A stretch of 39,980 bases of DNA, taken from Parcubacteria group bacterium GW2011_GWA2_38_13 (GTDB lineage Bacteria > Patescibacteriota > Patescibacteriia > Buchananbacterales > GWA2-38-13). The position numbers and the translations under genes are program-made. Location: contig LBUD01000015.1 of assembly GCA_000992395.1 (NCBI GenBank), positions 1 to 39,980 on the forward strand. Reading direction: 5' to 3'. The notes under the pieces are model-generated. The model was not told where the DNA came from. It searched no databases and saw only the letters and a list, made by a program, of their open reading frames with translations. Positions 56 to 25,307 of the stretch are shown piece after piece. How positions within the stretch are numbered: the stretch's first letter is position 1; each line of letters opens with the position of its first letter.

Positions 56-1105
56 TCAAACCTCTTCTAAATCCTTTAGAAGCTGTGTGCCCAAAATTAT
101 TGGCGTAAGATTTTCTTTTATACATAACAACGCTTTTTTAGAAATATGATCCCGCAATTCCTGATTATTTTTTATATCTACTATTGCATCGGCAATAGCA
201 TCTATATCGGCGCGTTTGCATAAATAAACATTTTCTCTATGTGTGAATTTTTCGCGAATGGCAGGAGTATCGGATGTTATAACAGATATGCCCATGGCCA
301 TAAGTTCATACACCTTATTTGGTATTACCCGGTTCACCTTATCGGTATTTCCAAAAATTCCCAAGCCCACGTGGACCGATCCGATAAAATTCATAAGTTT
401 CTCCGGCACCATAACAGGAAAAAAATCAACATTTGAAAGTTTCAATTCATTGGTCGCGAATTCTTTCATCTTTTTATAATCCTGCCCGCCTCCTATAATC
501 CATAATCTTATATTTTCTTTTTCTAATTTTTTCATTGCCCCCAATACATACTCAATGCCATGAAGCGGGGTGATGTACCCATAAAAAACAGCTAGAAAAC
601 ACTTTTCGTTTTTTTGTACATTTAATGGATGATATACATTATCATCAATTCCGTGGTATACCACAATTAATTTTTTTGAATTCATACGAAAGGTTTTAAT
701 AAAATATTGCGCGTGTTCTTTGGTGTCAAGAAGAACTCTGTCGGCAAGCGCGCAAGAAAGCCAATCCATACAATAATACCACAAAGCTTTTAAAGAATAT
801 GGACTGCAATTTTTCCTATCAAACACGTTTCCGTCGTACATAGAGGCAAATGCGTCAAAAACTATTGGTTTTTTTGAAATGAGTTTTGCAAATGGCATAA
901 TAATTTGCCCGGGAAATCCGACTAACATAATATCGTAATTGTTTCTTATTTCTCTGTGCTGTTTATATAAATTCCAAAATTTTTTAAATCCAGGCGTCCT
1001 GTCCTGAACCTCAATTACCTCAACACCACATTTTCTTAGCCCGATAATTGTATTTTTCGCGCGGCAATAATCTTTTTGATAAATTCCGAAGTAACAAATT
1101 TTCAT
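56..1105 (-). CDS. Glycosyltransferase family 4 (GT-B fold)
   Basis: Likely start MKICYFG at 1105 (ORF open to 1135); FYGYITPLHG and PNKVYELMAMGISVITSD match GT4 C-terminal motifs. Confidence 0.9.
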   Translation of the reverse strand: MKICYFGIYQKDYCRAKNTIIGLRKCGVEVIEVQDRTPGFKKFWNLYKQHREIRNNYDIMLVGFPGQIIMPFAKLISKKPIVFDAFASMYDGNVFDRKNCSPYSLKALWYYCMDWLSCALADRVLLDTKEHAQYFIKTFRMNSKKLIVVYHGIDDNVYHPLNVQKNEKCFLAVFYGYITPLHGIEYVLGAMKKLEKENIRLWIIGGGQDYKKMKEFATNELKLSNVDFFPVMVPEKLMNFIGSVHVGLGIFGNTDKVNRVIPNKVYELMAMGISVITSDTPAIREKFTHRENVYLCKRADIDAIADAIVDIKNNQELRDHISKKALLCIKENLTPIILGTQLLKDLEEV

Positions 1106-1113
1106 AAAAAATT

Positions 1114-2082
1114 TTAAATATTTTTTCTCCACCATGCCAGCATATCGGGTAATGTTTGTTGCATAAAATCAATTTCAGGTTTCCAGCCGCTCGCTTTTTT
1201 AAATTTATTATTATCGCCGACAATCGCATTACCGTCATTCGGCCTCGTACCCGATGTATCTTTAATAAATTGAATGTTTTTTATTTCCGATAATCGTATG
1301 AGCGCGTCAAGAATTTCTTGAAGCCGAAGTCCGTTGCCGGAACAAATATTATATACATCGCCCGCTTGGCAATTTTGGGTAGCCATTACATATCCCCTGA
1401 CAATATCCCGAACATCGGTAAAGTCCCGGACAGCTGACAAGTCGCGTATTTCCAAAATTGGCGGCCGTATTCCTTTTTCTATTTCAATAATTTTTCTTGC
1501 CATATTAGAAACAAAAAATATCGGGTTGCGCCGAGATCCCGTATGATTAAACGCCCTCATCCGGATAATTTTCATCCCGTAAGAGATAAAATATTGGTAC
1601 CCCATGTAATCCTGCGCGAGCTTGCTTATGGCATAGGGAGATCTTGGGTGCAATTCTTCGTTTTCTTTAATAGGCAAATTCGCTTCGCCCACAAAACCAT
1701 ATTCCTCCGAAGAGCACGCAATAAGGATTATAGGATCAGCCTTGTCCTTTAACATCCTTACCGCTTCAAAGAGATTGGATTGCCCCAAGATATTCGTAGA
1801 AAGCGTTGAGGTCGGATCTTCCCAGGAAGAATGAACGTAGCTTTGCGCTGCCAGATGGTATATGCGATCCGGCGCCACTTTTGCAACAACCCTCTCAACT
1901 TCTTTTTTATTATTGATGTCGCAGGTCAGGATGTGTATTTTCTCAGAGAATGCTTTAATATTTTTGATATCCGTATCCGGAAGAATTGTACCAAAAATTT
2001 CCGCTTTATTTTTTTGCGATAGTATATATTCGGCAAGATGGCTTCCGGCAAACCCGGCAATACCGGTTATAAAAATCTTCAT
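1114..2082 (-). CDS. GDP-mannose 4,6-dehydratase / GDP-4-keto-6-deoxymannose reductase-like SDR enzyme
   Basis: ITGIAGFAGSHL, HLAAQSYV, SSEEYG, SPYAISK (YxxxK), RAFNHTG, RDFTDVRD. Confidence 0.88.
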   Translation of the reverse strand: MKIFITGIAGFAGSHLAEYILSQKNKAEIFGTILPDTDIKNIKAFSEKIHILTCDINNKKEVERVVAKVAPDRIYHLAAQSYVHSSWEDPTSTLSTNILGQSNLFEAVRMLKDKADPIILIACSSEEYGFVGEANLPIKENEELHPRSPYAISKLAQDYMGYQYFISYGMKIIRMRAFNHTGSRRNPIFFVSNMARKIIEIEKGIRPPILEIRDLSAVRDFTDVRDIVRGYVMATQNCQAGDVYNICSGNGLRLQEILDALIRLSEIKNIQFIKDTSGTRPNDGNAIVGDNNKFKKASGWKPEIDFMQQTLPDMLAWWRKNI

Positions 2083-2083
2083 A

Positions 2084-3358
2084 TTATAAAGTGTGTTCTA
2101 TAATCTTTAAAAATTTCTTAATAATCGCGTCATAAGTATAATTTTCCATAACTCTTTTTCTCGCATCATCGCCCATTTGTTTTTGTAAATTCTCATCTGA
2201 CAAAATTTTGACTATCGCGTCGGCAAGAGCTTTTGAATTTTTTATAGGAACAACAAGACCGGTCTGGCCGTCAATATTAATCTCAGGGCTTGCTCCCGCG
2301 TCAGTCGTTATGACCGGCAAGCCGCACGACATTCCCTCAATAGTCACCTGACCAAATGCCTCCATCCAAATCGAAGGAACCACAAAGACATCCGCGGCAT
2401 TAATATATTCCGGGAGTTCGGAGAATGGCTTCCTGCCAAGTATTTGCACGCTACCGCCTACTCCAAGATTTTCAATCAATGCTTTCATTTTTTCGCTCTC
2501 GCCACCGCCGCCGATGATTGCCAACGACGCGTCAGAAATTCGCGCACGTACCTCAGGCATCGCTTCTAATAAATATCCTATCCCCTTTTCTTCAAAATTT
2601 ATTCTCCCTATAAATAAAATGATTTTCTTTCCCCGTAGCCCAAGTTTTTTTCTTAAATCATTTTTATTCCCAAGGGGTTTGAATATATTCTCTTCAATAG
2701 AGATACCAAGATCTATTGACTTTGATTCATCAAGGCCAAGCTCTTTTCCTTCCCGAATCGCCGCCTTGCTGAGAAAAACTATGGCATCGGCATTTTTATA
2801 AATAGCTTTTGCGTACTTCATCTGCCTTTTTTTCCCGAGCAAAAGCTTAAGCTTAAAATTAAGAATGCCGCCCATCCCGATTTTATAAAAAAATTTGTAC
2901 CATGGCTTTTCGCCAAAAATATCTTTCGGGGTCCTCTGAAAATGCCAGTGCCACGCCGTTATTTGCCGGAATATAAACGGCACACCAAGCCTGTGTTTTA
3001 TTTTTGCAACTGCATAACCGGTTTCACGCGCTTGCCAAACATATACAATTTTACATCCCTGTCTTACAGCTTCCAAAACCATTTTTTGCGTTCGGACACT
3101 ATAAATAAAAAAAATTATTCTGTTAAGGGGCCACGCCCAAATACTCGCCATCATAGGAGGCCAATATCTTTTTATTTTTACCCCATTAACATCCACGCTT
3201 CCCTTTTTAAAAAAACTTAAAAATGGCGCAACTACTGTTACCTCATGCCCGAGCGTTACCAAGCGCCTCATTTTTTCTATAAAATAATGATACGTGCCGA
3301 GATGTTCGCCAATTTCTTTTTCTGTTCCGAATTTATACGCTACAACGCATATTTTCAT
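2084..3358 (-). CDS. Glycosyltransferase family 4
   Basis: FIGRINFEEKG, DVFVVPSIWMEAFGQVTIEGMSCGLPV (Ex7E); likely start MKICVV at 3358 (ORF open to 3373). Confidence 0.92.
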   Translation of the reverse strand: MKICVVAYKFGTEKEIGEHLGTYHYFIEKMRRLVTLGHEVTVVAPFLSFFKKGSVDVNGVKIKRYWPPMMASIWAWPLNRIIFFIYSVRTQKMVLEAVRQGCKIVYVWQARETGYAVAKIKHRLGVPFIFRQITAWHWHFQRTPKDIFGEKPWYKFFYKIGMGGILNFKLKLLLGKKRQMKYAKAIYKNADAIVFLSKAAIREGKELGLDESKSIDLGISIEENIFKPLGNKNDLRKKLGLRGKKIILFIGRINFEEKGIGYLLEAMPEVRARISDASLAIIGGGGESEKMKALIENLGVGGSVQILGRKPFSELPEYINAADVFVVPSIWMEAFGQVTIEGMSCGLPVITTDAGASPEINIDGQTGLVVPIKNSKALADAIVKILSDENLQKQMGDDARKRVMENYTYDAIIKKFLKIIEHTL

Positions 3359-3414
3359 ACAATCATATTTCAAATAAATATTCTTCTTCCTAAATCCATT
3401 TCCCTATCACTCTG

Positions 3415-3423: not shown

Positions 3424-3460
3424 CTTGCAATTTTACTGCGATAGCATAAAAATAACAAGT
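3423..3460. repeat. 38-bp imperfect palindrome, copy 1
   Basis: ACTTGCAATTTTACTGCGATAGCATAAAAATAACAAGT; last base overlaps the stop codon of the PaaX-like gene. Confidence 0.92.
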
Positions 3461-4011: not shown

Positions 4012-4049
4012 ATCTTAAAATATCTATCAAAATTATGAATAAACTTTCT

Positions 4050-4087
4050 ACTTGTCATTTTTCTGCGATAGCATAAAAATGACAAGT
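4050..4087. repeat. 38-bp imperfect palindrome, copy 2
   Basis: ACTTGTCATTTTTCTGCGATAGCATAAAAATGACAAGT, 38 bp upstream of the PaaX-like start codon. Confidence 0.95.
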
Positions 4088-4088
4088 G

Positions 4089-4112
4089 ATTATTATTATT
4101 ATTATTATTATT
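4089..4112. repeat. (ATT)8 microsatellite
   Basis: Eight perfect ATT units starting one base after palindrome copy 2. Confidence 0.9.
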
Positions 4113-4141
4113 TTCGTTTTCCGGTTGTGTATATTCCCTAT

Positions 4142-7097: not shown

Positions 7098-8168
7098 TCA
7101 TATAACAAATTGTTTTACTATGAATTGTGCCAATGATCCGAGATTGTGTTTTTTCAACACCTCCTCGCGCAAAACTCTTCGAATCTTTTCTTTATTTTGG
7201 CGTGTTAGATTTTTTATCTGGAATAATTTTTTTGCAAGTTCTTTTGGCTGATCTTTTTCTATTAATAAATTATCGCTTACTATTCCCTTGAATGCCTTAT
7301 TGGAAGTAATGACCGTGCATCCGCATGCCATTGCCTCTAAAACGGCCTTATCTACGCTTCCTGTATTGCTTAAATTAATAAAAACATCGGCTTCTTGATA
7401 AAATCTCACAACCTCCTTATTCGGTATCGGTCCTACAAATTCTATAATTTTCTCCAGATCCATGGCCCTTACCATCTGCTTTAAATTATCAAAATAGCTC
7501 TGATGCTCAGGCAATCCGGGTTCGCCTACAATTTTTACAATTAAATTTTTTTCACCGCCGTCGTCCAGCGAATCAATTGCTTTAATCAGGCTCTCTAAAT
7601 CTTTGGTGGGGGAAATTCTTCCTACAGTTAGAATATGAAACAATGCGTCATCAGGATAATCTTTCCATATAGGATGAAACAGCTCGGTGTCAATGCCATG
7701 CCCCGTTGCTAATACTTTTTCGGAATGTATAGGAAAACTTTCCGGCGATGCGGTCAAAATCACGTTAGCCATCTTTACCAACAATTTTAGTTTCCACGTG
7801 ATTGTGCCATGCGTATACCAAGAAACTATTTTTTTCCTATGGATTTTCGCATATGGCCAAATATTTAACGTATACTCCGGATTCATATGGCAAAATATTC
7901 CCTGCACTTTCGGAACAATTTTTATGGCATATTTTTGAAATTCTATGAAACGTCCAAACCGGCTGACTCCGACTTCTTTGCCAAGCGAATAAATCTCAAC
8001 GTTGTCCGGCAATCCCGAAACATCACCTTTTTCAATGCAAATACAATACAACTTCGCATTCGCATCAAGATTTTTCAATTCTTGCGCAATTTTATCCACC
8101 CAGCCATAAGCGAAACCGGCCAAAGCGTCGGCGTGATCAATTTTTCTTGTTATCATGAGTATATTCAT
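7098..8168 (-). CDS. Glycosyltransferase family 4
   Basis: GHGIDTELF, TVGRISPTKD, DVFINLSNTGSVDKAVLEAMACG. Confidence 0.92.
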   Translation of the reverse strand: MNILMITRKIDHADALAGFAYGWVDKIAQELKNLDANAKLYCICIEKGDVSGLPDNVEIYSLGKEVGVSRFGRFIEFQKYAIKIVPKVQGIFCHMNPEYTLNIWPYAKIHRKKIVSWYTHGTITWKLKLLVKMANVILTASPESFPIHSEKVLATGHGIDTELFHPIWKDYPDDALFHILTVGRISPTKDLESLIKAIDSLDDGGEKNLIVKIVGEPGLPEHQSYFDNLKQMVRAMDLEKIIEFVGPIPNKEVVRFYQEADVFINLSNTGSVDKAVLEAMACGCTVITSNKAFKGIVSDNLLIEKDQPKELAKKLFQIKNLTRQNKEKIRRVLREEVLKKHNLGSLAQFIVKQFVI

Positions 8169-8180
8169 ATCTAAAATATA

Positions 8181-10034
8181 TTAATGTAGATTAAAACATC
8201 TTTGTACGGCAATACAATATTTTGAATCGTGAAATTCCCTGATTTGGTATTTTAAAATAATTTCCTTAAGCCATTGGGGCAATTCATCCGAATATTTTAC
8301 TTCCATAATGGATGCATTTTCCAATAAAATATTGCCGTCAGATACCTTGTGAATTCCTTGAAACGAGCCTGCCGTGAATTCTTTATCAAAAATAACCCGG
8401 ATATCTTTATTGAGCCCGCCGACCATAGCGCACCTTTTATAATTTACAAAAAGTATCGGCTTCATCTGATGCTGTGATGCAATTTGCAAAAATTCCTGTA
8501 TAATTTCCCGGCTTTCGGCCGGCATATTTGAAGCTTTATCCAGCGACATATTTTGCATGATCCGTGAAAAATCCGAATAGCTGATTTTTACTCTAAATTT
8601 CTTTACATACTTTCCTTTTCTTTTTTTTATTTCAGGATATACGATAAAATCTTCAGTATCGGGCTCAACGTAAATCCTTAAACGGTATTTTGTCAATTCT
8701 TTTGTTATGTCCTTCCTTTGGTGATAGCATTGAAAATCTTGTGTATCAAAATAAACATTAATAATTTTATAAAAATTTCCGCCGGTAATATTTGAATATT
8801 CATCAAATTCCATAAATTTTCTCATTTCCCCAATTATCGTGTTGAGCTGATCCCAAGGAATAAGAAATTTTATTTCCTGGCGCAAAAAACTCGCGCTTTC
8901 TATAACATGAACGATATTGTTCCAAAATGCAATGATTTTTTCCGTTACAACCTTCCCATCAAAATTTTCAAAAACATATTTTTTTGCGTTTTGCCCCATT
9001 GCAAGCGCAACGTCAAAATTTTTCAGTATATATAATATCTTTTCGCCCATCAGACTATAATCTCCTATTCCAACTAAAAACCCGTTATACCCGTCTTTGA
9101 TAATTTCCATTGCACCGGTTGTTGCTGTTGATATAACCGGTTTCCCGCACGCCGACGCTTCAATCAAAACCTTACCAAAGCTTTCACTAAGCGATGACAG
9201 GACAAAAATATCACAAGCATAATAGTATGCAATAATGTCTTTCTGTTCTTTTTGCTCCAAAAAATGCACGTCAAGCTTTTTTCCCGCGCATAAATCTTTC
9301 AGTTTTGCGCCTTCGCTTCCAGACCCTATGACAACAAGGGTTGCGTTATTGATTTTTTTTGCCACTTCCTCGTATGCATGTATCAGGGTTTCAATATCTT
9401 TAACTTTTTCCAGCCGCCCCACAAACAGGATAATTTTTTTATTTTCATAATCTTTTCGAATAGCCTCCACTTTGTTTATATCAGTATTTCCAAACTTTGA
9501 TATATCAACGGGTGTCGGGATAACTTTTATTTTATTTTCAGGCACTCCATTCAAAATTAATTTTTTCTGTATACCAATACTCATTGCACGAAACGCGTCA
9601 GCTTCTTTCATATTATGTTTTGCCAGTAAAACCAGATACCTATTTTTCCAATCCTCTCTTAAAAAACTTCCATTATCCAAAAAATCTCCGTGGAAATGAA
9701 TTAAAAGTTTTGTTGTATGCATTTTTTTCAGTCTTATTCCAACCGTTGCCGTTATAAATGGGTCTTGCGTGATTATAAGATCATAATGTTTTTTTTCAAA
9801 CAATCGCCTTGCAATTTTCATCGCATCCCTGATATATAAAAATTTATATGATGAATTTGTAGGAAATGCCGATACATTTTCAGAAATTACGTAAGGCGAA
9901 TATCCGCTTTTGCTAAAAACTATAATATCAATACTGTCTACACGCTTGCCATATTCTTTATGACGCTCGCAAACATCCCCAAGCTGCCCTTGCCCCAGCA
10001 ATCCTTTATCCAAACTGATGATTAAAATATTCAT
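8181..10034 (-). CDS. GT4 glycosyltransferase fused to a C-terminal VTC (CYTH-like, polyphosphate polymerase) domain
   Basis: GT4: FVGRLEKVKD, ESFGKVLIEASACGKP. VTC: RQEIKF, YFDT, KYRLRIY, EIKKR, YKR, RVIFD, MEVKY, SKYC. Confidence 0.85.
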   Translation of the reverse strand: MNILIISLDKGLLGQGQLGDVCERHKEYGKRVDSIDIIVFSKSGYSPYVISENVSAFPTNSSYKFLYIRDAMKIARRLFEKKHYDLIITQDPFITATVGIRLKKMHTTKLLIHFHGDFLDNGSFLREDWKNRYLVLLAKHNMKEADAFRAMSIGIQKKLILNGVPENKIKVIPTPVDISKFGNTDINKVEAIRKDYENKKIILFVGRLEKVKDIETLIHAYEEVAKKINNATLVVIGSGSEGAKLKDLCAGKKLDVHFLEQKEQKDIIAYYYACDIFVLSSLSESFGKVLIEASACGKPVISTATTGAMEIIKDGYNGFLVGIGDYSLMGEKILYILKNFDVALAMGQNAKKYVFENFDGKVVTEKIIAFWNNIVHVIESASFLRQEIKFLIPWDQLNTIIGEMRKFMEFDEYSNITGGNFYKIINVYFDTQDFQCYHQRKDITKELTKYRLRIYVEPDTEDFIVYPEIKKRKGKYVKKFRVKISYSDFSRIMQNMSLDKASNMPAESREIIQEFLQIASQHQMKPILFVNYKRCAMVGGLNKDIRVIFDKEFTAGSFQGIHKVSDGNILLENASIMEVKYSDELPQWLKEIILKYQIREFHDSKYCIAVQRCFNLH

Positions 10035-11149
10035 ACATTTTCCAATATTTTAATAGTTGAAGACATCATTTTTTCTTTTTCAAATTTTTTCAAAATATCC
10101 TTCGCGTTTGTTTTAAATAGTTCTTTTAATTTCGGATCTGAATAAATTTTTTTTACCGCTTCCACTATCTGATCCTCATTATCATATTCAACCAACAAAC
10201 CGGTTTTCCCGTCTTCTATTACTTCGGGATTGCCTCCAGTATTTGTGGTAACGATAGGAATGCCCGCCGAAAGGCATTCTAAAAGAGTATGTGATAATCC
10301 TTCGTATCCGGTATTAAGAATAAAAATTCCTGCGCCTCTAACGCTTTTCATAATATTTTGCCTTGTCTGGCAGGATAAAAATACTTTATTCTCAAGCCGT
10401 GCCTCTTTTATAAGCCGAAGCAATTTTCCTTCATCGGGTCCGCTTCCATAAATATTCAAAATAAAATTTTTATTAATTTCTAAAAGCTTTGGCATTATTT
10501 TTATCAATGTGGAAAAACCTTTCCACGGAACCAATCTTCCGGTTGTTACAATACTATTCGGATTAACGGAAACATCCGAGGTGATTTCTTCCGGAACAAA
10601 AGAATTATATATAACATTAATTTTATTTTCCTTAACTCCCCAGCCCATCACAATATTTTTTAAATAATTGCTTGGAACAATAACGGCATGTGCATTTTTT
10701 ACAGTTAACCGCTCCAAATATTGCAATATGCCAGTTTTCCCGACCATCTTGATTTTTTGAAAATTATCAATTCCCATTTCTGTCGCGTTGGAATTTCTCG
10801 CTGACTCCCAGGCATAATCTCCCACCACCTTTACTGCGTATTTTTTTCCTAAAATATTATTCACAAGATAAGCCGGAATTCCACTCGAAATCGGCCCCTG
10901 AGCATATATGACATCAAATTTTTTTGCTAAAAAAAATAGTTTCAAAAAATATCGGACATAACGAATCAGGACAAAAGATTTTCTGGAAATCCGCGTTATA
11001 GTAAAATCATATGATTGTGTATCATCGCCACAACACAACACTTCAAAATCATAATGGTTTTCCTTCATCCAAAGCGCCAGATCCATCGCATATGTTGCTG
11101 GTCCTCCGATATCCGGCGGAAATATTTCGCACGCAAGTAATATTTTCAT
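10031..11149 (-). CDS. Glycosyltransferase family 4
   Basis: FPPDIGGPATY, TGRLVPWKG, YEGLSHTLLECLSAGIP. Confidence 0.92.
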   Translation of the reverse strand: MKILLACEIFPPDIGGPATYAMDLALWMKENHYDFEVLCCGDDTQSYDFTITRISRKSFVLIRYVRYFLKLFFLAKKFDVIYAQGPISSGIPAYLVNNILGKKYAVKVVGDYAWESARNSNATEMGIDNFQKIKMVGKTGILQYLERLTVKNAHAVIVPSNYLKNIVMGWGVKENKINVIYNSFVPEEITSDVSVNPNSIVTTGRLVPWKGFSTLIKIMPKLLEINKNFILNIYGSGPDEGKLLRLIKEARLENKVFLSCQTRQNIMKSVRGAGIFILNTGYEGLSHTLLECLSAGIPIVTTNTGGNPEVIEDGKTGLLVEYDNEDQIVEAVKKIYSDPKLKELFKTNAKDILKKFEKEKMMSSTIKILENV

Positions 11150-13757: not shown

Positions 13758-13876
13758 AATTTCTAATTACTAATTTTTAATTTCTAAACAATGCCTGATG
13801 TCTAATTTCAAAATTTTTATTTATTAGTTTATTAGGAATTTCTTAGGTTAATTAGAAATTAGGTCAATTAGAAATT
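13758..13876. repeat. Imperfect hairpin element with AATTTCTAATT/AATTAGAAATT termini
   Basis: Same ends as 33015-33379; overlaps the last codons and stop of the epimerase gene. Confidence 0.75.
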
Positions 13877-14826
13877 TTATAATATTCTTTATACCACTGT
13901 AAAAACTTTTCTATCCCTTCTTCAATACCTGTTTTCGGCTCCCAGCCAAGTTTTGTTTTTGCCTTTTCAATATCAGCCCAAGTTTTTGGAACATCCCCCT
14001 CCTGCATTGGCAACAAATTTTTCTGAGTTTTCGCGCCAATATTTTTTTCAATAACTTGAATGAAATATTCAAGCGCAATTGGTTTATTATTTCCTAAATT
14101 ATAAATTTCATACCCGGAATTTCTATCAATCGCGCGAATGATACCGTCAATAATATCGTCAATGTACGTAAAATCTCTTTCCATTTTTCCATTATTAAAA
14201 ACATCAATTGGCCTGCCCTCAAAAATAGCTTTTGTAAATATAAAAAGAGCCATGTCCGGCCGCCCCCAGGACCCATACACCGTAAAAAATCGTAAGCCCG
14301 TACAGTTCATTCCATACAAATGGTGGTACGTATGCGCCATAAGCTCATCAGCTTTTTTCGTTACCGCATATAATGAAACCGGATTATCCACCCTGTCGGT
14401 TTCAGAAAACGGCACCTTGGTATTGCCTCCATATACGGATGAAGACGACGCAAAGATGAAATTTCGCACCTGGTGTTTTTTCGCAAGCTCAAGGAGATTG
14501 AGCGTGCCGAGTATATTCGCCTTTTCGTACGCGAAAGGATTTTCGAGAGAATACCGGACTCCAGCCTGCGCCGCCAAATGGCATATGGCGTCAAATTTTT
14601 TGCTTGAAAAAATTTTATCCAATGCCGCAAAATCGCAAATATCAATTTCATTCATTTTAAAATTCACCCCTGATAAAAATTTTTCTATTCTGTCGCGCTT
14701 TAGTTTCGGATCGTAATAATTATTAAAATTATCAACACTCACAACAGAATCGCCCTGCGCCACAAGCGCTTGTATTAAAGCTGATCCTATAAATCCGGCC
14801 CCACCAGTGACAAGTATTTTAGGCAT
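13864..14826 (-). CDS. UDP-glucuronate 4-epimerase-like NAD-dependent epimerase
   Basis: TGGAGFIG, HLAAQAGVRYSLENP, SLYAVTKK, LRFFTVYGSWGRPDMA. Confidence 0.92.
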   Translation of the reverse strand: MPKILVTGGAGFIGSALIQALVAQGDSVVSVDNFNNYYDPKLKRDRIEKFLSGVNFKMNEIDICDFAALDKIFSSKKFDAICHLAAQAGVRYSLENPFAYEKANILGTLNLLELAKKHQVRNFIFASSSSVYGGNTKVPFSETDRVDNPVSLYAVTKKADELMAHTYHHLYGMNCTGLRFFTVYGSWGRPDMALFIFTKAIFEGRPIDVFNNGKMERDFTYIDDIIDGIIRAIDRNSGYEIYNLGNNKPIALEYFIQVIEKNIGAKTQKNLLPMQEGDVPKTWADIEKAKTKLGWEPKTGIEEGIEKFLQWYKEYYKISN

Positions 14827-14868
14827 ATTTAATTTCTGTTTTTTTAGGTTAATTAGGTAATTAGATAA

Positions 14869-15654
14869 TTAGGTTAATTGTTTCTTCTGCCCTAGCAACT
14901 CCTCATTTATCTTCTGCACATCTTCAAGCAAAGGAACTTCCACACCCAGATCCTGCGCAAGATCAACAAGCGAAGCCAGATCTTTCGGCAAACATTTGCC
15001 GCCAAATCCCCTGAAACCCCCGTGCCATACATCAAAATTTCCCGGAGCCACTCGCCTATCGTGTTCAAACGCCTCGCGCACGATATTGTAATCAATACCA
15101 AGCGACTGGCATATATCATAAATCTGGTTTGCAAAAATAACTTTTGTAGCATAATACGAGTTCACCATATACTTTGTCATTTCAGCGGCTTTCGCCAACA
15201 TAATTTTTGAATACTTTGCTTGCGGCAATATTGCCAAAATTTTTTCTGCAACATCTTTGCTTAACTTTGTATACCCGACGATTTGTTTATCAGGGTTCAA
15301 AAAATCCTGCGGCGCGGTTGAATTGTCTAAAAATTCCGGATTAAAAAGCAGGCGCAATTTTGGATATTTTTCTTGGAACATATCCGTAGTGCCGGGTACA
15401 ACCGTTGATTTGATAATCACGACCTTGCCGTCCATATTGCTCAATTTTTCCAAAACCTCATCAACAATTGATGCATCAAAACCTGAATTTTCGTTATACG
15501 GCGTTGGAACACATATAAAAATATATTCTTGGCTTGCCACCTCATCCCACGGATCCATTGTTAAAAATTTGTCATAAACCTTAGCATTTTTAAAAAAATT
15601 TTTCACTGCCTTGCCCACCACTCCTCCCCCAATGATTCCAACGGATTTATGCAT
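14869..15654 (-). CDS. UDP-glucose/GDP-mannose 6-dehydrogenase family, short form
   Basis: GGGVVG, ICVPTP, KSTVVPGT, NPEFL, GFGGKCLPKD; 261 aa, no C-terminal UDP-binding domain. Confidence 0.85.
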   Translation of the reverse strand: MHKSVGIIGGGVVGKAVKNFFKNAKVYDKFLTMDPWDEVASQEYIFICVPTPYNENSGFDASIVDEVLEKLSNMDGKVVIIKSTVVPGTTDMFQEKYPKLRLLFNPEFLDNSTAPQDFLNPDKQIVGYTKLSKDVAEKILAILPQAKYSKIMLAKAAEMTKYMVNSYYATKVIFANQIYDICQSLGIDYNIVREAFEHDRRVAPGNFDVWHGGFRGFGGKCLPKDLASLVDLAQDLGVEVPLLEDVQKINEELLGQKKQLT

Positions 15655-15662
15655 ATAATTGC

Positions 15663-15718
15663 TTGATTATTAACAATTTACATACTATAATTATAAATAA
15701 TTTCATCAAAGAAGTCAA
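15663..15718. promoter_or_regulatory. Two overlapping, oppositely oriented sigma70 promoters
   Basis: Plus: TTGATT(15663)-17-TATAAT(15686-15691). Minus: TTGACT(15718)-17-TATAAT(15695-15690). Confidence 0.75.
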
Positions 15719-15727
15719 AGGATAAAT

Positions 15728-16864
15728 ATGACTAAATTTAGTAAAATATTATTCATTATTACCCAATCTGAACTTGGCGGCGCGCAAAGATATGTTTTAG
15801 ATTTGGCAAATCATTTAAAAGATAATAATTATGACATAATTGTTGCGTCCGGTCAATCCGGACATCTTTTAGATGAATGCAAAAAAAAATCAATACAAAT
15901 ACATATTTTTAAAAATTTGATCAGACCAATTCATCCGTTTAAGGATCTTTTTGCATTTTTTGAAATATATTCATTTATAAAAAAAGAAAAGCCGGATATC
16001 GTACATCTGAATTCTTCAAAATCAGGAATTTTAGGAGCTGTTGCGGCCAAGGCCGCCGGAGCGAAAAAGGTGGTTTATACGGTACATGGTTTTGTTTTTA
16101 TGGAGCCCATGGCAAAATGGAAAAAAATATTTTATATATGCGCGGAAAAATTTTCTTCGTTTTTTAAAGACGCAATAATTTGCGTATCAGAATACGACAA
16201 AAAGATGGGCATACGATACAGAATCGCACCTGAAAAAAAATTTATAACCATCCATAACGGTATTGAACCCATCAACTTCCTGCCAAAAGAAGAAGCGCAA
16301 AAATTTCTATTAAAAAGCTATCAGCTATCAGCTATAAGCTATAAGCTAATAATCGGCACCATAGCAAATTTTTATCCAACAAAAGGACTTTTGTATCTGG
16401 TCCAATCTGCGAAAAAAATAATTGAAAAATTTCCACAAACACTTTTTGTAATTATCGGAGACGGCGAGGACAGAAATATTCTTGAAAACGAAATTGCAAA
16501 ACTTAGCATTAAAGAAAATGTATTGCTTTTGGGAAAGATACCAGATGCGTTGCGCTATCTTCGCGCGTTTGATATATATGTTTGTTCATCTGTAAAAGAA
16601 GGGCTTCCCTATTCTATTATTGAAGCAATGTCAGCAGGGCTTCCAATCGTTGCCACAAATGTCGGCGGAATACCGGAGCTATTAGCAAATGATTGCGGAA
16701 TTTTAGTTGAGCCAAAGAATTCAGATGCAATTTTCATGGGAATAGAAAAAATTATCAGCAGTCCCGGGCTTGGAAATATTTTAGGAAACAATGCAAAAAT
16801 AATTGCGCAAAAAAAATATTCGCTGGATACGATGATTCAAAAAACGCATCAAATATATTTATAA
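15728..16864 (+). CDS. Glycosyltransferase family 4 carrying a heptamer-repeat tract
   Basis: GGAQRY, TVHG, IHNGI, ANFYPTKG, EGLPYSIIEAMSAGLP. Confidence 0.93.
   Translation: MTKFSKILFIITQSELGGAQRYVLDLANHLKDNNYDIIVASGQSGHLLDECKKKSIQIHIFKNLIRPIHPFKDLFAFFEIYSFIKKEKPDIVHLNSSKSGILGAVAAKAAGAKKVVYTVHGFVFMEPMAKWKKIFYICAEKFSSFFKDAIICVSEYDKKMGIRYRIAPEKKFITIHNGIEPINFLPKEEAQKFLLKSYQLSAISYKLIIGTIANFYPTKGLLYLVQSAKKIIEKFPQTLFVIIGDGEDRNILENEIAKLSIKENVLLLGKIPDALRYLRAFDIYVCSSVKEGLPYSIIEAMSAGLPIVATNVGGIPELLANDCGILVEPKNSDAIFMGIEKIISSPGLGNILGNNAKIIAQKKYSLDTMIQKTHQIYL
16316..16348. repeat. Heptamer tract AGCTAT(C/A) x about 4.7 inside a CDS
   Basis: AGCTATC AGCTATC AGCTATA AGCTATA AGCTA, encoding SYQLSAISYKL. 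Confidence 0.88.
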
Positions 16865-16889
16865 TGATGCGATTACAAAATTATTTCAC

Positions 16890-16920
16890 AAATAGCCCGC
16901 GAAAAAAGCGGGTATTTTTT
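16890..16920. terminator. Intrinsic terminator between convergent genes
   Basis: CCCGC-GAAAAAA-GCGGG stem followed by TATTTTTT. Confidence 0.65.
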
Positions 16921-18661
16921 ATTCATTCAATCTGGCGCGGTACACCTTAAATATCAATACCCCGTCATCATCAAAAACATTTTCAACCGTAACAGGAGCA
17001 TTATCTTCCATTGATCTTAGAAATTCATTTTCAACAAAACCTGAAAGCTCACTTTGCTTTGGATTCGCATAATACGAAGGATTAAAAACTTTCTCCGCAA
17101 CCCCTTTAATATAATAAAAATTTTTCATTTTTCTTTCCTGCAATAACGCAAACCAATTGTCGGCTGTTTGGGAGCTTCTCCAAAACGTCAAATCAGATGA
17201 CATGATCATTCCATGGTAAACCTTATATCTTTCCAAATACCATGTTGTAGCAAACCAATCCAGCCCGTTTTCATATAAATAAATATTATTGTCCGCGAAA
17301 TTGACATCATAAAAAGTAATATCGTGCAAGGCGTTAATCGCCTTGACATCGCTTGAAAATAATTTGTCTTTTTTCCAAATTTCAAGCATATGCTTCTCAA
17401 GATTTTTAAAACCCAGGTCTTCCGCCCTTAAGCTGGAATAATTTTTATCTTTAACCCCCATGGGCTTTGCAAAAATATTCGTATTCATATTAAAGTAAAT
17501 TTCCATGCTTGCAAAAAATATTATTAATGGCACAAATATGCATAGTAATTTTTTTTGCGTTTGGATTTCTTTGTCGCGAATAACAAAATTATAAAAATCC
17601 ATAATACAAACGGCAAGGGCCAGCGCCAAAAATGGAGACCATATCGCCATGTAGCGGATATTGGGCGAGATAAAGCTGAATTCAACTGCCAAGGATGTTA
17701 TTGCAAGAAAAAGAAAGTGGTGTTTCTTTTTTCTCAAAAATATTTGTGCGGCTATATATGTAACCGATATCAATATTGCGCCAATGAATATTTTGGAATA
17801 TCCAATGCCCAAGGCCGCCCCAATATTTAAAAAGTTGGCGTACGGGCTCGTTACCAAATTTTGCGTAAATAAAATGGGCCAATCTTTTTGGGCGGCTTCA
17901 AAAACCCATGGGAAAATATGCGAGAATTGCACATCAAAATGCCCCCGGGTCTTAAAAAGCATAAAATTATAAAAAATCACCGGAGAAAAAACAACTGCGA
18001 AAACTGCCATTGCAACAAAAAATTTTTTGCTAAACAATATTTTTTTATCACGAAAATAAGCATACGAAACAATCAAAGGTATTAAAAAAAATGTCGTATA
18101 CTTTGTCAAAAATGCCATTCCCAAACAAGCGCCGAATAACGGAAAATAATTCTGTTTTTCAAACGATTTTAGAAAAAATAGAATCGCTAAGAGTATAAAA
18201 AATATAACCACCCCTTCCAGATATGTCACGCGGGATGCCCATGTAAACAAAGTAGATATCCCTAAAAAGAATACGGCCATAAGAGCGGTGTTTTTATCAT
18301 ACAATTTCTTTGCTATATAATATAATAAGATCAAAGAACCTATTCCCGCCAGCGCAAACGGCAAAAGCGCGGTGAATTCATTTTCCCAAAACACGCGAAA
18401 GAATATATTTTGTATTATAAAAACAAGCGGAGGATGCGCGTGAAAAGACAGCCTTGCCCACCACGGAATAATAAAAAACCATTGCACGGGAGTTGTCTGC
18501 CGATCCGAGAAAAGATAATCCAAATACCCCACCGACCACATAGAATAGAAGGCGCCGTCTGTTTGGAAATCGGCGCGTGTCAGGCGAAAAAAAATCAATA
18601 TACCGGAAAAACAGATTATTATAATAAATAATATTGCGGATTTCGAAAACTTCATACGCAA
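16919..18661 (-). CDS. GT-C membrane glycosyltransferase (ArnT/PMT, family 39-like)
   Basis: Multi-TM; ADFQTDG, FHAHPPL, LTKYT; start TTG 18661 or ATG 18655. Confidence 0.85.
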   Translation of the reverse strand: MRMKFSKSAILFIIIICFSGILIFFRLTRADFQTDGAFYSMWSVGYLDYLFSDRQTTPVQWFFIIPWWARLSFHAHPPLVFIIQNIFFRVFWENEFTALLPFALAGIGSLILLYYIAKKLYDKNTALMAVFFLGISTLFTWASRVTYLEGVVIFFILLAILFFLKSFEKQNYFPLFGACLGMAFLTKYTTFFLIPLIVSYAYFRDKKILFSKKFFVAMAVFAVVFSPVIFYNFMLFKTRGHFDVQFSHIFPWVFEAAQKDWPILFTQNLVTSPYANFLNIGAALGIGYSKIFIGAILISVTYIAAQIFLRKKKHHFLFLAITSLAVEFSFISPNIRYMAIWSPFLALALAVCIMDFYNFVIRDKEIQTQKKLLCIFVPLIIFFASMEIYFNMNTNIFAKPMGVKDKNYSSLRAEDLGFKNLEKHMLEIWKKDKLFSSDVKAINALHDITFYDVNFADNNIYLYENGLDWFATTWYLERYKVYHGMIMSSDLTFWRSSQTADNWFALLQERKMKNFYYIKGVAEKVFNPSYYANPKQSELSGFVENEFLRSMEDNAPVTVENVFDDDGVLIFKVYRARLNE

Positions 18662-18662
18662 A

Positions 18663-20426
18663 TCAATTAAGTTTTATCCTTAATACCCTGAAAGCCTCTT
18701 TATTTTCATCATTATATATCGGCGTAACTTCCCCATCGCTTCCATTTTTTATATATTCCAAAAAAATATTTTCAAAATTTTCTACAAAATCTTTCCGATC
18801 ATTGCTTGAATCATAGTCTCCGCGATACACTAGAGGGTTTGCCCCGACAATATAAAAAAGATTTTTAATTCCCAGACTGCGCAAAACATTTATTGAATCT
18901 TGAGGTGAAATTTTACTGTCCACAAGCTCTTTAATATACTCAGAATCCCCCATAAATGGCACTTTATGATAAATCCATTGTCTGTTAAAATACCATATTC
19001 TCGCAAACCAGTCCAAATCAAAATCAAAAAGATAAAAATTATAGCCCTGTAATGATTTCCAATCAAGCCGTATTTCATCCAAAACGTTGATTTTTCTTAA
19101 TTTTTTATTGTAAAAATCTTCATTCTCCCACGTTGTTTTTAAAAATTTTTCCAGCTGGTTATATCCAAGGTTTCTTTCAACAATATTTGAAAATATTTTT
19201 TTATCACTTGCAACAAAGCCCGGCACATGATTTATTCTATAACTATGCATATATTCAAATCCAAATATACTTATTATAATGGCGGCAATTCCTATGAATC
19301 CTATACTTTTTTTGGAAAAAAATTTCACCATATCGCTTATAAAAACCCCTATCGCTAGAGATAAAAATGGAAGAAATATTGGCAAATAACGCGACGTAGG
19401 GGAGATAACCATAAACATTGCGGATGCGCTAAGTATTGCCACGAGAAGGAATTTCTCAAAATGCTCTTTTGAAAAAAATAATGTTTTTATTGCCACATGC
19501 AACACGGAGAATAGCATCATAATGTAAAATGGAAATGAAAATCCTTCTTTCATACCCGGCCAAATATTTTTTAGGTTTGTATATATATTTCTGGAATCCG
19601 TCTTATCGGTATATATACCCGGCCAATCCCTTTGCGCTGCTTCAAACATATTTGGAAAAAGATGCGATAGTTGGACGTCAAGGTGTCCGCGCGTTTCATA
19701 GACCATGATATTATAAAAAATAACAGGCGATATGATAACCAAAAATGCAATCATGCCGAGAATAAATTTTTTATTAAAAAATATTTTTCTCTGCCACATC
19801 GCAATATACGCAAAAATAAACACCATAAGAAAAAACGAAGTATATTTTGACATAAGCGCGCAACCCAGGGCGCACCAAAACCATACAAAGTAAGAATCTT
19901 TCTCAAGCGCGCGGATGAACAGATAGAATGCGAAAGTAATAAAAAATATTTCAATGCCTTCAAGGTACGATATCCTGAAAACCCACGAAAACAATGTTGA
20001 AATAGACAGCGTTCCAGCCGAAATAAGCGCGATTTTTTTCCCGAACATTTTTGCAGCTGACATAAATACAAGAAAAAATGTTCCCATGCCGGCAAGCGCG
20101 AACGGAAGCCTCATCGCGAAAGTATTATCCCCGAAAATTTTAAAAAAAATATTCTGTATTATAAACACAAGCGGAGGGGCGTCATGAAATGATAGTTTTG
20201 ACCACCACGGAATTTTTCCATACCACTGTATCGGCGCTGTTTGCTGATAAGGCACAAGATAATCCACAAGCCCAACCGAGCGCATAGAATAGTGCGATCC
20301 GTCCGTATAGCTGTCGGCCCTTCCCAATTGATAGAATAAAAAAAAGGCTGTATTTATTATAATTATATAAAAAATAATCCTCTCTATTGCTTTGAGTTTT
20401 TCATGTTTTAGTGTTAATGTTTCCAT
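18663..20426 (-). CDS. GT-C membrane glycosyltransferase (ArnT/PMT-like)
   Basis: ADSYTDG, FHDAPPL, AMRLP, SKYT; paralog of its neighbours. Confidence 0.85.
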   Translation of the reverse strand: METLTLKHEKLKAIERIIFYIIIINTAFFLFYQLGRADSYTDGSHYSMRSVGLVDYLVPYQQTAPIQWYGKIPWWSKLSFHDAPPLVFIIQNIFFKIFGDNTFAMRLPFALAGMGTFFLVFMSAAKMFGKKIALISAGTLSISTLFSWVFRISYLEGIEIFFITFAFYLFIRALEKDSYFVWFWCALGCALMSKYTSFFLMVFIFAYIAMWQRKIFFNKKFILGMIAFLVIISPVIFYNIMVYETRGHLDVQLSHLFPNMFEAAQRDWPGIYTDKTDSRNIYTNLKNIWPGMKEGFSFPFYIMMLFSVLHVAIKTLFFSKEHFEKFLLVAILSASAMFMVISPTSRYLPIFLPFLSLAIGVFISDMVKFFSKKSIGFIGIAAIIISIFGFEYMHSYRINHVPGFVASDKKIFSNIVERNLGYNQLEKFLKTTWENEDFYNKKLRKINVLDEIRLDWKSLQGYNFYLFDFDLDWFARIWYFNRQWIYHKVPFMGDSEYIKELVDSKISPQDSINVLRSLGIKNLFYIVGANPLVYRGDYDSSNDRKDFVENFENIFLEYIKNGSDGEVTPIYNDENKEAFRVLRIKLN

Positions 20427-20467
20427 AGAACGATTATTTGCTATACTGTAATTATATAACGCTTCAT

Positions 20468-22168
20468 ATGATTCTACGCAAGCATCTTGGCATATCCATA
20501 GCAGCTGCCGGCCTTATAGCAATGGCAATATTTTTTCGCCTTGGCTACGTTGGCGCAAGCGATGTCATAACCGATGAAGCATCGCTTGGTTTTCGCGCCA
20601 TAGGGCTCATTGATTTTGACGCGACGATACACCAGCCGTCCCCATGGGAATGGGCGAATATACTTTCCTCCTGGATGAGGCTCTCAATGCACGACCATCC
20701 TCCCCTCTTTTTTATTATACAACATTTTTCCCTCAAAATATTGGGAGAAAACACAATTGCTTTGAGGCTGCCTTCAGCTATCTTCGGGATTCTGTCGGCA
20801 TATCTCATATATAGTATCACAAAAAAATTGTTTGATGAAAAAACCGCAATGGTGGCAGGAGCGCTGTCATCGGCCAATGTTTATTTAATCTGGGTATCAA
20901 GAATCGGCCTTCAAGAATCAACGCTTATATTTTTCTTTTTGCTTTCCATATATTTTTTTCTCAAAAGTTTCTCGGACGAACGTTTTTTTATTCTTTGCGG
21001 AATTTGCGTCGGACTCTCGTGGCTGACGAAATATACGGCGTTTATTCTTGCGCCGATATTTCTGACATACTTTATAATTTTTGATCGGCAATATTTTCGC
21101 AATAAATTTTTTTGGGCAGGTGTTGCGCTTGCGCTTGCAATCTTTTCACCGGTGCTTTTGTATAATTACAGGCTTTATCTCGCCTTTGGGCATTTTGACT
21201 TCCAGTTTTCCTATGTATTCGGACAAAATGTCGCTCAATGGCAAATCCAGCCGGGCAAAGAAGAATTTAAAAACATCCTGGATAAATTTTTCTCAATTTT
21301 TATAAATCTAAAAAACGGCCTATCTCCGGCATTTGCCGGACTGCTTTTAGCAACAATGGTTTACTTTTTCCATAACATAATCACAAACAGAAATAAAAAT
21401 AAAATATTTTTGCTGCTTGCGCTTATTTTTTTATTCCTTGAATATATTGTCATCGGCCCGTCGCAAAGATTTTTAAGCGCGATTATTCCTTTTTTTATCA
21501 TCATCATATCGTGCAGTATTATTGATGTATATAATTCAATACAAAAATTTGCACGTATAGCTATGTGGAAATATGCATTCACGCTTTTGCTATTTTTATT
21601 TTTTGTTTATGAGGCAATATTTTCCTACCAAACAAATATAACTATGCAGCCGAAACATTATTACTCCAAAGATATAGCCTCTCATTATTCGTATTCAGGT
21701 TACCAAAATCTTGACCAATGGCTGACCGACGAAATCCAAAACAAAAAACCTCGGTTTTCATTTGACCTATCCTATATTTTTCTCAAAGACATAAGTATTA
21801 AAACAAATGAAAAATATAATCGTGGCAATTTCAAAGATGAGGGAATTTTATTCGTATATGATGAAAATATGAATGAACAATCAAGTTTATGGATAATGCA
21901 CCGCCTTATGATATATCATAATTGGCCCGTACTTGCCTCAAAACAATATTATAACGCCATACAAAAAAATGGCGATGATTATTATAAAAAGCTTGGTTTT
22001 GAAAAAATTTATTTAATAAAAAAAGACCCCGAAACGCTCGGGAAAAAATTCAGTCTGGAAGGTAAAAATATTGATGACCTTATCTCTTACCTTAATATCA
22101 GCGGTAGCGAGCCGTATATACTAAAAAATTCACAAGGCAAAAAATCTTTTTCTATTTACTCACTATAG
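20468..22168 (+). CDS. GT-C membrane glycosyltransferase (ArnT/PMT-like)
   Basis: DVITDEA, MHDHPPL, ALRLPS, TKYT; ATG at 20468 preferred over TTG at 20438. Confidence 0.85.
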   Translation: MILRKHLGISIAAAGLIAMAIFFRLGYVGASDVITDEASLGFRAIGLIDFDATIHQPSPWEWANILSSWMRLSMHDHPPLFFIIQHFSLKILGENTIALRLPSAIFGILSAYLIYSITKKLFDEKTAMVAGALSSANVYLIWVSRIGLQESTLIFFFLLSIYFFLKSFSDERFFILCGICVGLSWLTKYTAFILAPIFLTYFIIFDRQYFRNKFFWAGVALALAIFSPVLLYNYRLYLAFGHFDFQFSYVFGQNVAQWQIQPGKEEFKNILDKFFSIFINLKNGLSPAFAGLLLATMVYFFHNIITNRNKNKIFLLLALIFLFLEYIVIGPSQRFLSAIIPFFIIIISCSIIDVYNSIQKFARIAMWKYAFTLLLFLFFVYEAIFSYQTNITMQPKHYYSKDIASHYSYSGYQNLDQWLTDEIQNKKPRFSFDLSYIFLKDISIKTNEKYNRGNFKDEGILFVYDENMNEQSSLWIMHRLMIYHNWPVLASKQYYNAIQKNGDDYYKKLGFEKIYLIKKDPETLGKKFSLEGKNIDDLISYLNISGSEPYILKNSQGKKSFSIYSL

Positions 22169-22195
22169 GAAGGTATGGAAACCTAAAGGTTTCCG

Positions 22196-24571: not shown

Positions 24572-24575
24572 AATA

Positions 24576-25307
24576 TTATTTATCAAGCTCCGCAAGCGCC
24601 TGTTTTGCAACAATGCTTTCCGGGTATATTTTCAAAAGTTTTTTATAGGTCTCTATGGCTTTTGGAATTTGTTGTAATTGCCGATAATGAAGCGCGAGAT
24701 TAGCTAAAATATCTGTTTGCTCCGGATATTTGACAGAGCCGGAAATCAAAATATTTTCTGCTTTCTTTTCATCATTGAGAAAAAATCTGTAAAGCTCATA
24801 AAGCTCGCTATAGTACATTTCAAGATACGGACCCGGGATTTCAATGGCTTTCAAATAATACTCTTCGGCTTTTGCGTAATCTTTTATATAACGAAAATAC
24901 AATTCTCCCAGATTTCCGTAAGGCAAAAACGCTCCCGGCTGTAATTTTTGGGCATACATAAATGCGGCTTGGGCTTTTGCAAAATTACCAACATCCCTAT
25001 GTACGCCTCCAAGATATATAAGCGGCCAATATAAAAACGTTTCGTTCTGATTCCCCTGTGTTTCAATCACTGCTATTTTTTCTTCAAGTTCTTTTTTGAA
25101 TACCTGAAAATCCTGAAAATATTTTTCTTTTTGTGCATCTGTCAGATCGGTTTTTATGTATTCCAATTTCATAAGACTTTCAAGGGTTGTCTGTGAAGAA
25201 TTTACATTCGCCGGTTTTTCAGTTTTATTAAAATAATAGAATCCGGATATCAAAAAAATAACAACAATGAGCGTGATAATAATGCCTAAAATCTTTCTTT
25301 TATTCAT
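24576..25307 (-). CDS. Membrane-anchored TPR protein
   Basis: N-terminal TM helix; TPR patterns such as YGNLGELY...DYAKAEEYYLKAIE. Confidence 0.82.
   Translation of the reverse strand: MNKRKILGIIITLIVVIFLISGFYYFNKTEKPANVNSSQTTLESLMKLEYIKTDLTDAQKEKYFQDFQVFKKELEEKIAVIETQGNQNETFLYWPLIYLGGVHRDVGNFAKAQAAFMYAQKLQPGAFLPYGNLGELYFRYIKDYAKAEEYYLKAIEIPGPYLEMYYSELYELYRFFLNDEKKAENILISGSVKYPEQTDILANLALHYRQLQQIPKAIETYKKLLKIYPESIVAKQALAELDK

Follow-up and report, generated by a model that had tools for sequence, protein, structure and literature searches.

A rare fusion of a GT4 glycosyltransferase and a VTC domain in a conserved glycan gene cluster of Patescibacteria

The subject of this report is a gene on a 39,980-nucleotide (nt) stretch of the genome of Parcubacteria group bacterium GW2011_GWA2_38_13 (contig LBUD01000015.1, positions 1 to 39,980; the whole stretch is called the window below). 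The gene encodes a whole glycosyltransferase (GT) of family GT4 joined by about four residues to a whole VTC domain, the domain of yeast Vtc4, which makes polyphosphate (polyP) from ATP. The fusion is real, conserved and rare, and both of its halves are intact. It lies in a conserved cluster of glycan genes, and its VTC half may be an active nucleoside triphosphate (NTP)-dependent phosphotransferase that, within a bifunctional enzyme, tailors the glycan of the pathway with phosphate or oligophosphate. This reading, in which we infer catalysis, acceptor and product, is tentative, and its chance is rated somewhat below even.

The gene and its parts are as follows.

8181..10034, minus strand: GT4-VTC fusion gene, 617 amino acids (aa) plus stop; a single open reading frame (ORF) with an ATG start, in which the GT4 and VTC Pfam matches share one frame
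8910..10034, minus strand: GT4 (GT-B) glycosyltransferase half, aa 1-375 (Pfam, ortholog alignment, AlphaFold2 (AF2) model)
9159..9185, minus strand: E284-x7-E292 motif of the GT4 half, invariant in four aligned fusions and conserved in orthologs
8898..8909, minus strand: interdomain linker of about four residues, aa 376-379 (AF2 secondary structure, gap-free alignment, bridging contigs)
8184..8897, minus strand: VTC (Vtc4-type triphosphate-tunnel) domain, aa 380-617 (Pfam, Vtc4 profile match, AF2, Foldseek)

The initial annotation of this DNA had described a complete GT4 running in frame into a VTC domain with eight ordered tunnel motifs, and both points are borne out. Pfam places Glyco_transf_4 at aa 41-179 (E 3.8e-13, 50.3 bits) and Glycos_transf_1 at aa 192-352 (E 7.1e-42, 143.3 bits), both above threshold, and VTC (PF09359) at aa 385-612 (E 5.1e-40, 137.9 bits against a cut-off of 23), the last covering profile positions 2-233 of 235. 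In a genome-wide scan the VTC domain scored 140.9 bits. Given these E-values, the architecture is far beyond chance. The protein ends five residues past the VTC match, and Pfam recognises in its 617 aa GT4 and VTC families only, with no SPX or transmembrane domain. The tunnel motifs stand in order in the translation: E387-x-K389, Y428-F-D-T431, K449-x-R451-x-R453-x-Y455, E468-I-K470, Y532-x-R534, R546-xxx-D550, E578-V-K580 and S604-K605-Y606. The gene shares 4 nt with the upstream GT4 gene (10031..11149), and the downstream GT4 gene (7098..8168) comes 12 nt after it. An identical 617-aa protein (P0001) is present in a public protein collection.

The junction between the domains, at about 8890-8930, was examined with Logan contigs from four runs (X1, X3, X5 and X6) placed on window positions 8000-10200; X1 may be the source sample, and X5 and X6 belong to other studies. 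Record 4 of X1 (8492-9939) bridges the junction with no differences, and it is also bridged by record 18 of X5 (8750-8951) and record 27 of X6 (8847-9023). The bridging contigs thus come from three runs and three studies, and no insertions or deletions are listed for them. The X3 contigs include no bridging piece, as they stop at 8840 and resume at 8903. Record 3 of X1 lists seven variant sites for the VTC part, and six of them are at third codon positions. None of the 17 runs listed was an RNA data set. Fused relatives are found in protein clusters at 82% (P0002), 52% (P0003) and 44% (P0004) identity; they are not split into two genes, and the junction aligns without gaps. Furthermore, the 7-kb metagenome contig L032 encodes a 616-aa fusion and is syntenic with the window, in the order GT4, fusion, GT4 (78% identity), GT4 (70%), epimerase (60%) and GT4 (43%). 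Five fused sequences are known in all, including that of the window, and they span 44-100% identity. Because P0002-P0004 and the syntenic L032 exist, a one-off loss of a stop codon is excluded.

The VTC half resembles yeast Vtc4 in sequence and in predicted fold. A single-sequence phmmer search of the VTC part against the PDB gave just chance matches to BUD31 (E 0.07); the profile of 60 VTC sequences used for the PDB comparison matches yeast Vtc4 (3g3q) with an E-value of 1.5e-23. Counted along this profile alignment, residues of Vtc4 map onto the fusion as follows.

Vtc4 K200: fusion K389
Vtc4 R264: fusion R451
Vtc4 R266: fusion R453
Vtc4 K281: fusion K470
Vtc4 Y359: fusion Y532
Vtc4 R361: fusion R534
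Vtc4 E426: fusion E578
Vtc4 S457: fusion S604
Vtc4 K458: fusion K605

According to passages of a cryo-EM preprint on VTC, these nine residues coordinate triphosphate and Mn2+ and are required for polyP synthesis, and K458 is the sole one of them that is replaced (by I or L) in the inactive Vtc2 and Vtc3 (10.1101/2023.01.27.525886). All nine equivalents are conserved in the aligned fusions. More broadly, 24 stand-alone VTCs share 31 positions with at least 90% conservation, and 28 of these are identical across the five fusions. For the VTC part, AF2 gives a model (alignment A4) with a pLDDT of 92.9 and a pTM of 0.89. Foldseek ranks 1-11 for this model are VTC-complex chains only, with Vtc4 3g3r as the best (TMq 0.77, E 5e-14), whereas generic triphosphate tunnel metalloenzyme (TTM)/CYTH enzymes reach a TMq of 0.40-0.54; the structure model that had been suggested as a check thus places the fold nearest to Vtc4. 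On sequence and model, the VTC half looks catalytically competent and of Vtc4 type. It belongs to the same family (PF09359) as the Vtc4 tunnel domain (PDB 3G3Q/3G3R, 8I6V, 7YTJ), which is its best structural match and whose nine critical residues it keeps. However, identity to yeast Vtc4 is 16-18% over the aligned structures, and the fusion differs from Vtc4 and the VTC complex in having no SPX, no transmembrane domain and no Vtc1/2/3-like partners, in carrying a GT4 as its N-terminus and in belonging to a small-genome bacterium.

The GT4 half is also well preserved: of 76 GT4 positions with at least 90% conservation among 34 stand-alone orthologs, 64 have one and the same residue in every fused sequence. 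Residues E284, E292, R207, K212 and H115-G-D117 are invariant or conserved in the fusions, and the E-x7-E motif is a hallmark of GT4. Stand-alone orthologs of this half (e.g., P0005 and P0006; Candidatus Buchananbacteria/Falkowbacteria) are 40-59% identical over aa 1-376 and share with the fusion its conserved residues and its slot between the same neighbouring GT4s. Unlike the fusion, which runs on into the VTC domain, 33 of the 34 have their C-terminal end at the equivalent of residue 375. This boundary is also seen in the full-length AF2 model (pLDDT 90.6), where aa 1-375 form alternating beta and alpha elements with a pLDDT mostly above 90, the last GT4 helix spans residues 360-375 and the first VTC strand residues 380-393. 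The best solved sequence relatives of the GT4 half are BshA-type enzymes (PDB 2JJM/3MBO, 5D00; E 1.8e-22). The NCBIfam BshA score of 119 against a cut-off of 273.7 marks this as generic GT4 similarity that assigns no substrate, and the NCBIfam equivalog scores of the fusion are all far below their cut-offs. A role in anti-phage defence was considered and rejected: PADLOC assigns no family to the fusion or to either of its GT4 neighbours, and the GT4-conflict match PF20706 (39.6 bits) is also found on other GT4s of the window, beneath stronger generic GT4 matches. Apart from the VTC fusions, orthologs of the same GT4 are fused in tandem to a second GT4 in P0029 (713 aa) and P0071 (632 aa), so that this gene has been fused to a neighbour more than once in other lineages.

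The surrounding genes make up a glycan locus, whose members besides the fusion are listed here.

10031..11149, minus strand: upstream GT4 (Pfam); in many loci its ortholog precedes that of the fusion's GT4
7098..8168, minus strand: downstream GT4 (Pfam); its ortholog lies downstream in 31 of 39 loci of at least 6 kb and is 78% identical in L032
11156-12598, minus strand: flavin adenine dinucleotide (FAD) amine-oxidase/GLF-like oxidoreductase, cluster member (Pfam, synteny)
12585-13709, minus strand: GT4, cluster member (Pfam, synteny)
56-1135, minus strand: GT4 of the distal cluster part (Pfam; order of the distal trio as in L032)
1114-2082, minus strand: NDP-sugar (nucleoside diphosphate sugar) epimerase/dehydratase of the distal cluster part (Pfam; order as in L032)
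2084-3373, minus strand: GT4 of the distal cluster part (Pfam; order as in L032)
13864..24613, no single strand: rest of the glycan locus, with an epimerase, a short UDP-glucose dehydrogenase (UGDH)-like ORF, a GT4 (plus strand), three PMT_2 genes and a Wzy_C/O-antigen-ligase-like TPR protein (Pfam, partial synteny)

Beside the fusion, the window has seven GT4 genes, two NDP-sugar epimerase/dehydratases, the FAD oxidoreductase and the short UGDH-like ORF, together with three PMT_2 (GT-C) genes and the Wzy_C/TPR protein. Synteny was assessed by tblastn of the window proteins against 80 metagenome loci around GT4 homologs, and the conserved order reads GT4(-), [UGDH/epimerase], GT4, [FAD oxidoreductase], GT4, fusion's GT4, GT4, [GT4, GT4]. 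The orthologs of the fusion's GT4 and of the downstream GT4 are directly adjacent (gap of at most 300 nt) in 23 of the 40 loci that have both. In the others of these 40, the slot after the ortholog of the fusion's GT4 is occupied by S-adenosylmethionine (SAM) methyltransferases (5 loci), small GT2 enzymes (7), B12-radical-SAM proteins (3), Asn-synthase-like amidotransferases (2) and sugar aminotransferase/acetyltransferase genes (2). Since this slot holds tailoring enzymes elsewhere, the VTC domain sits at a hot spot for glycan tailoring. Between 6900 and 16000, scans for promoters (40 against 36.7±5.8) and for terminators (6 against 7.3±3.6) were both at chance.

Stand-alone VTC genes of related bacteria are also associated with glycan loci. 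The initial annotation had stated that bacterial VTC genes normally stand alone beside DUF4956 and CotH genes, and within this phylum that pattern was verified: a DUF4956 gene comes after the stand-alone VTC gene in 10 of 17 short loci and in all five long ones, and CotH/beta-helix proteins are encoded in four of the latter. Each long locus (that of G765, from the same family; those of G549, G708 and G746, from the same order; and L040, from a metagenome) is part of a glycan cluster that also has genes for GT4/GT2, epimerase, DegT, methyltransferase, deacetylase or flippase proteins. The CotH/beta-helix - VTC - DUF4956 module of L040 comes straight after the orthologous pair of GT4 genes, with the same orientation and in the same conserved cluster. 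Parts of a report on Gram-positive pel operons name CotH, a 'poly-phosphate polymerase', DUF4956 and DUF4832 as contiguous accessory genes (10.1101/768473); to judge from these parts, such stand-alone modules use the same domain family and likewise occur in polysaccharide clusters. The module VTCs are single-domain proteins of 209-316 aa followed by DUF4956 and usually accompanied by CotH, whereas the fusion has neither partner, and its VTC part is at most 35% identical to any stand-alone VTC among the matches listed. As had been noted at the outset, Pfam finds no DUF4956 or CotH in the window. The same holds across the genome (1.04 Mb, 82.7% complete), in which DUF4956, CotH, PPK1, PPK2 and Ppx-GppA were not detected, a result that is suggestive and not conclusive. 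This pattern argues against a role in channel-coupled export or in bulk storage of polyP. Another arrangement is seen in a deeply separated clade of short VTCs (SH-aLRT 100), encoded by ORFs of 219-236 aa in L013 and L015-L018 (genomes G213, G140, G210, G230 and G249). These have no adjacent DUF4956, and they neighbour either GT1-like genes or the gene for a protein of 480-494 aa, which is a CotH in L013 and has no Pfam match in L015 and L016.

The histories of the two halves were followed separately. A tree of 73 VTC domains unites the five from fusions with the stand-alone P0122 in one group (SH-aLRT 99) that is apart from the DUF4956-linked VTCs of the same family and order, and a single change explains the label 'fused'. 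The locus of P0122, the nearest stand-alone VTC, was not found in the genome contigs. For the GT4 half, the tree, the approximately unbiased (AU) test and the sliding-window identities were computed on the fused and GT4-only rows of alignment A3, with VTC-only rows set aside. Four fusions form a clade (SH-aLRT 93) nested among the stand-alone P0005 and P0006; the GT4 half of P0004 groups instead with P0015 and P0040, and monophyly of the five fused GT4 halves is rejected by the AU test (p 0.0245). Indeed, P0003 and P0004 are 12-42% identical over aa 160-260 and 70-88% identical from about aa 341 to the end, and over aa 140-340 P0004 resembles P0015 and P0040. These comparisons suggest that lineages of orthologous GT4s have exchanged the 3' end that carries the VTC domain. 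Such a transfer of the 3' end between GT4 genes would imply selection for the fused state.

Both domains are known families, and the rarity lies in their combination. Searched with HMMER against 1.84 billion cluster representatives, the VTC part gave 3,193 matches at E<=1e-3, and only the query's own cluster was better than E 1e-30. Among the best 150 of these matches, 149 are stand-alone proteins of 209-316 aa with 24-35% identity. VTC domains were found in 22 of 401 species-representative genomes of the phylum sample, in 31 of 401 of the class sample and in 15 of 41 of the nearest relatives, the source genome being counted in each. In about 845 related genomes sampled, all full-length VTC matches outside the source genome are stand-alone and lie in open frames of 222-286 aa. 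A profile scan of genome contigs found no fusion, its five loci being all stand-alone VTCs with 26-29% identity. In the ESM Atlas, no GT4+VTC cluster was among the nearest; that search covers clusters of at least 50 members and is no proof of absence. A word-indexed search with aa 380-617 recovered P0001 and P0002 but missed P0003 and P0004, and is too insensitive for counting architectures. The literature search found no description of a GT-VTC fusion as an architecture, of its position in the cluster or of the functional link that it implies. Three proteins of 427-483 aa from the same class (L121:2849-4300, L122:2601-3884 and L123:2343-3638; genomes G479, G491 and G606) show a partial, divergent VTC-like match in their N-terminal half (E 5e-8 to 6e-5), followed by about 220-260 aa of unassigned C-terminal sequence, and one of them adjoins a GT4 gene. 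They may represent a second, unrelated architecture derived from VTC/TTM domains.

In the mechanism that we propose, the fusion would be a bifunctional cytoplasmic enzyme of a conserved surface-glycan pathway of Patescibacteria. Its GT4 half would perform one of at least five sequential glycosyl transfers, a role suggested by positional orthology in a cluster of several GT4 genes. The VTC tunnel would bind NTP and Mn2+ and pass the gamma-phosphate to a phosphate-type acceptor. The VTC half could thus act as a built-in tailoring unit that places phosphate or short polyP on, or next to, the growing lipid-linked glycan. It would stand in for the separate tailoring enzymes found right after the GT4 in other lineages, and likewise for the VTC-DUF4956-CotH module present in such clusters of relatives. 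Of the functions offered by the initial annotation, we still infer a phosphorylated or polyphosphorylated surface glycan, which is favoured by the conserved glycan cluster, the tailoring slot and the VTC modules of sister clusters, while nucleotide recycling coupled to glycosyl transfer is supported by no result.

Several observations weigh against this proposal. Divergence is faster in the VTC halves than in the GT4 halves (window and L032 share 39% and 61% identity, respectively), and 13 positions are invariant in the fusions and rare in stand-alone VTCs, including a charge reversal (E600 against R/K); because of these fusion-specific positions, the activity could be altered. The literature search found no biochemical test of any bacterial VTC protein. 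The clade of fused VTCs does not descend from the cluster-embedded VTCs found in the same family or order, so that replacement of a module is a scenario and not a result. The mosaic protein P0004 is known from one contig of 4,980 bp, which could be chimeric through misassembly. The full-length model (pTM 0.65) does not define the interdomain geometry, nor any channel or contact between the two active sites. At 82.7% completeness, a missing DUF4956, CotH or PPK is no proof of absence. Pfam recognised no flippase or other transport gene and no phosphate-related gene in the window, and no direct result points to the acceptor or the product.

The alternative that survives best is that the VTC half has another triphosphate-tunnel activity, as an NTP or tripolyphosphate hydrolase or a cyclase-like enzyme, or that it is a non-catalytic sensor, with ATP, polyP or a pyrophosphate-bearing lipid carrier as its ligand, by which the GT4 is regulated or positioned. 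Taken jointly, these two forms are unlikely. They would be in keeping with the hydrolases and cyclases among TTM/CYTH enzymes of the same fold, and with the 13 invariant substitutions and the faster divergence of the VTC half. However, sequence and fold are nearer to Vtc4 than to any hydrolase or cyclase, 28 of the 31 family-conserved positions are kept, and so is K605, the equivalent of the residue that separates active Vtc4 from inactive Vtc2/3. In addition, a pure binding module would not need the Mn2+-binding E578.

It is also improbable, and should be given only about one chance among several, that the VTC half makes free polyP from ATP as Vtc4 does, with the GT4 merely placing it at the membrane or the glycan machinery. 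The polyP would then be non-covalent and would serve as a local store of phosphate or energy, as a counter-ion or as a primer. The complete Vtc4 catalytic set is indeed conserved, and with no PPK1 or PPK2 found, the fusion is the only polyP-forming candidate of the genome. Yet neither a DUF4956-type membrane partner nor a Ppx-GppA to use the polyP was detected, and the VTC domain lies in a slot occupied elsewhere by glycan-tailoring enzymes. Moreover, the linker of about four residues and the transfer of the 3' end together with the end of the GT4 indicate tight functional coupling and not mere anchoring. The last alternative, an artefact of assembly or annotation or a lost stop codon joining neighbouring genes, has next to no chance: only five fused sequences are known and the window stems from a metagenome-assembled genome in 63 contigs, but contigs of X1, X5 and X6 cross the junction without indels, the junction is gap-free in relatives at 82, 52 and 44% identity, L032 is syntenic, and in none of 79 non-fused loci does a VTC gene come directly after the GT4 ortholog.

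The proposal of a glycan-tailoring phosphotransferase can be carried one step further. The VTC half might polyphosphorylate the lipid-linked glycan, or a phosphate on it. The product would be a cell-surface glycan with covalent oligo- or polyphosphate, an anionic polymer resembling teichoic acid but formed by a new route; this extension is doubtful. The TagF-like capsule polymerase Cps3D (PDB 8QOY), a weak match of the GT4 half, offers an analogy only, in that glycosyl transfer and the introduction of phosphate into a surface polymer are combined in one polypeptide. Capsule and teichoic-acid polymerases of the Cps3D type use an unrelated phosphotransferase fold and phosphate that comes from CDP-glycerol, in contrast to the triphosphate tunnel of the fusion and the gamma-phosphate of an NTP.

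Other features of the window were also recorded. On the minus strand, positions 4142-6970 encode a protein of 942 aa, with repeats of about 35 aa in its N-terminal part and a GNAT acetyltransferase domain in its C-terminal part, and positions 3460-4011 a 183-aa PaaX_M/Cas2-like protein with a weak PADLOC match to Cas2. This pair (3460-6970) looks like a genome-specific insertion, because the flanking GT4s are directly adjacent in L032, where the distal trio (window 56..3373) comes straight after the fusion and the next GT4 in the same order. The UGDH-like ORF (14869-15654, minus strand; 261 aa) matches the N-domain profile from position 65 and is without the C-terminal UDP-binding domain, whereas its counterpart in L040 has 397 aa and all three domains; the gene may be truncated or decaying. 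Within 16919-24613 lie a tandem of three PMT_2 (GT-C type) paralogs (576-587 aa) and, after them, the 805-aa Wzy_C/O-antigen-ligase-like TPR-repeat protein and a separate 243-aa TPR protein, a set that looks like extracytoplasmic glycan transfer or ligation beside the GT4 cluster. Further on, a 1031-aa ORF without Pfam match (25856-28951, minus strand) lies in a stretch with a G+C content of 0.44-0.46 against about 0.35 around it, and the next ORF, of 137 aa, also has no Pfam match.

Bacterial VTC proteins are common, as the 3,193 matches at E<=1e-3 among 1.84 billion representatives indicate, and a tested function was not found for them in the literature. The conserved fusion to a GT in a fixed slot of a glycan cluster gives strong guilt-by-association evidence that VTC proteins of this class act on surface polysaccharides, and it provides one soluble polypeptide on which VTC action on glycans can be tested directly. 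The finding also bears on the almost unknown chemistry of the cell envelope in Patescibacteria (the candidate phyla radiation, CPR), in a genome in which the canonical polyP enzymes were not detected. It suggests that the core of a eukaryotic-type polyP polymerase can work, or at least persist under selection, without a membrane channel partner. If covalent polyphosphorylation were true, the fusion would be a Rosetta stone for the widespread VTC-DUF4956-CotH modules, which would then be exopolysaccharide-phosphorylating systems in which polyP is made by VTC, exported through DUF4956 and used outside the cell.

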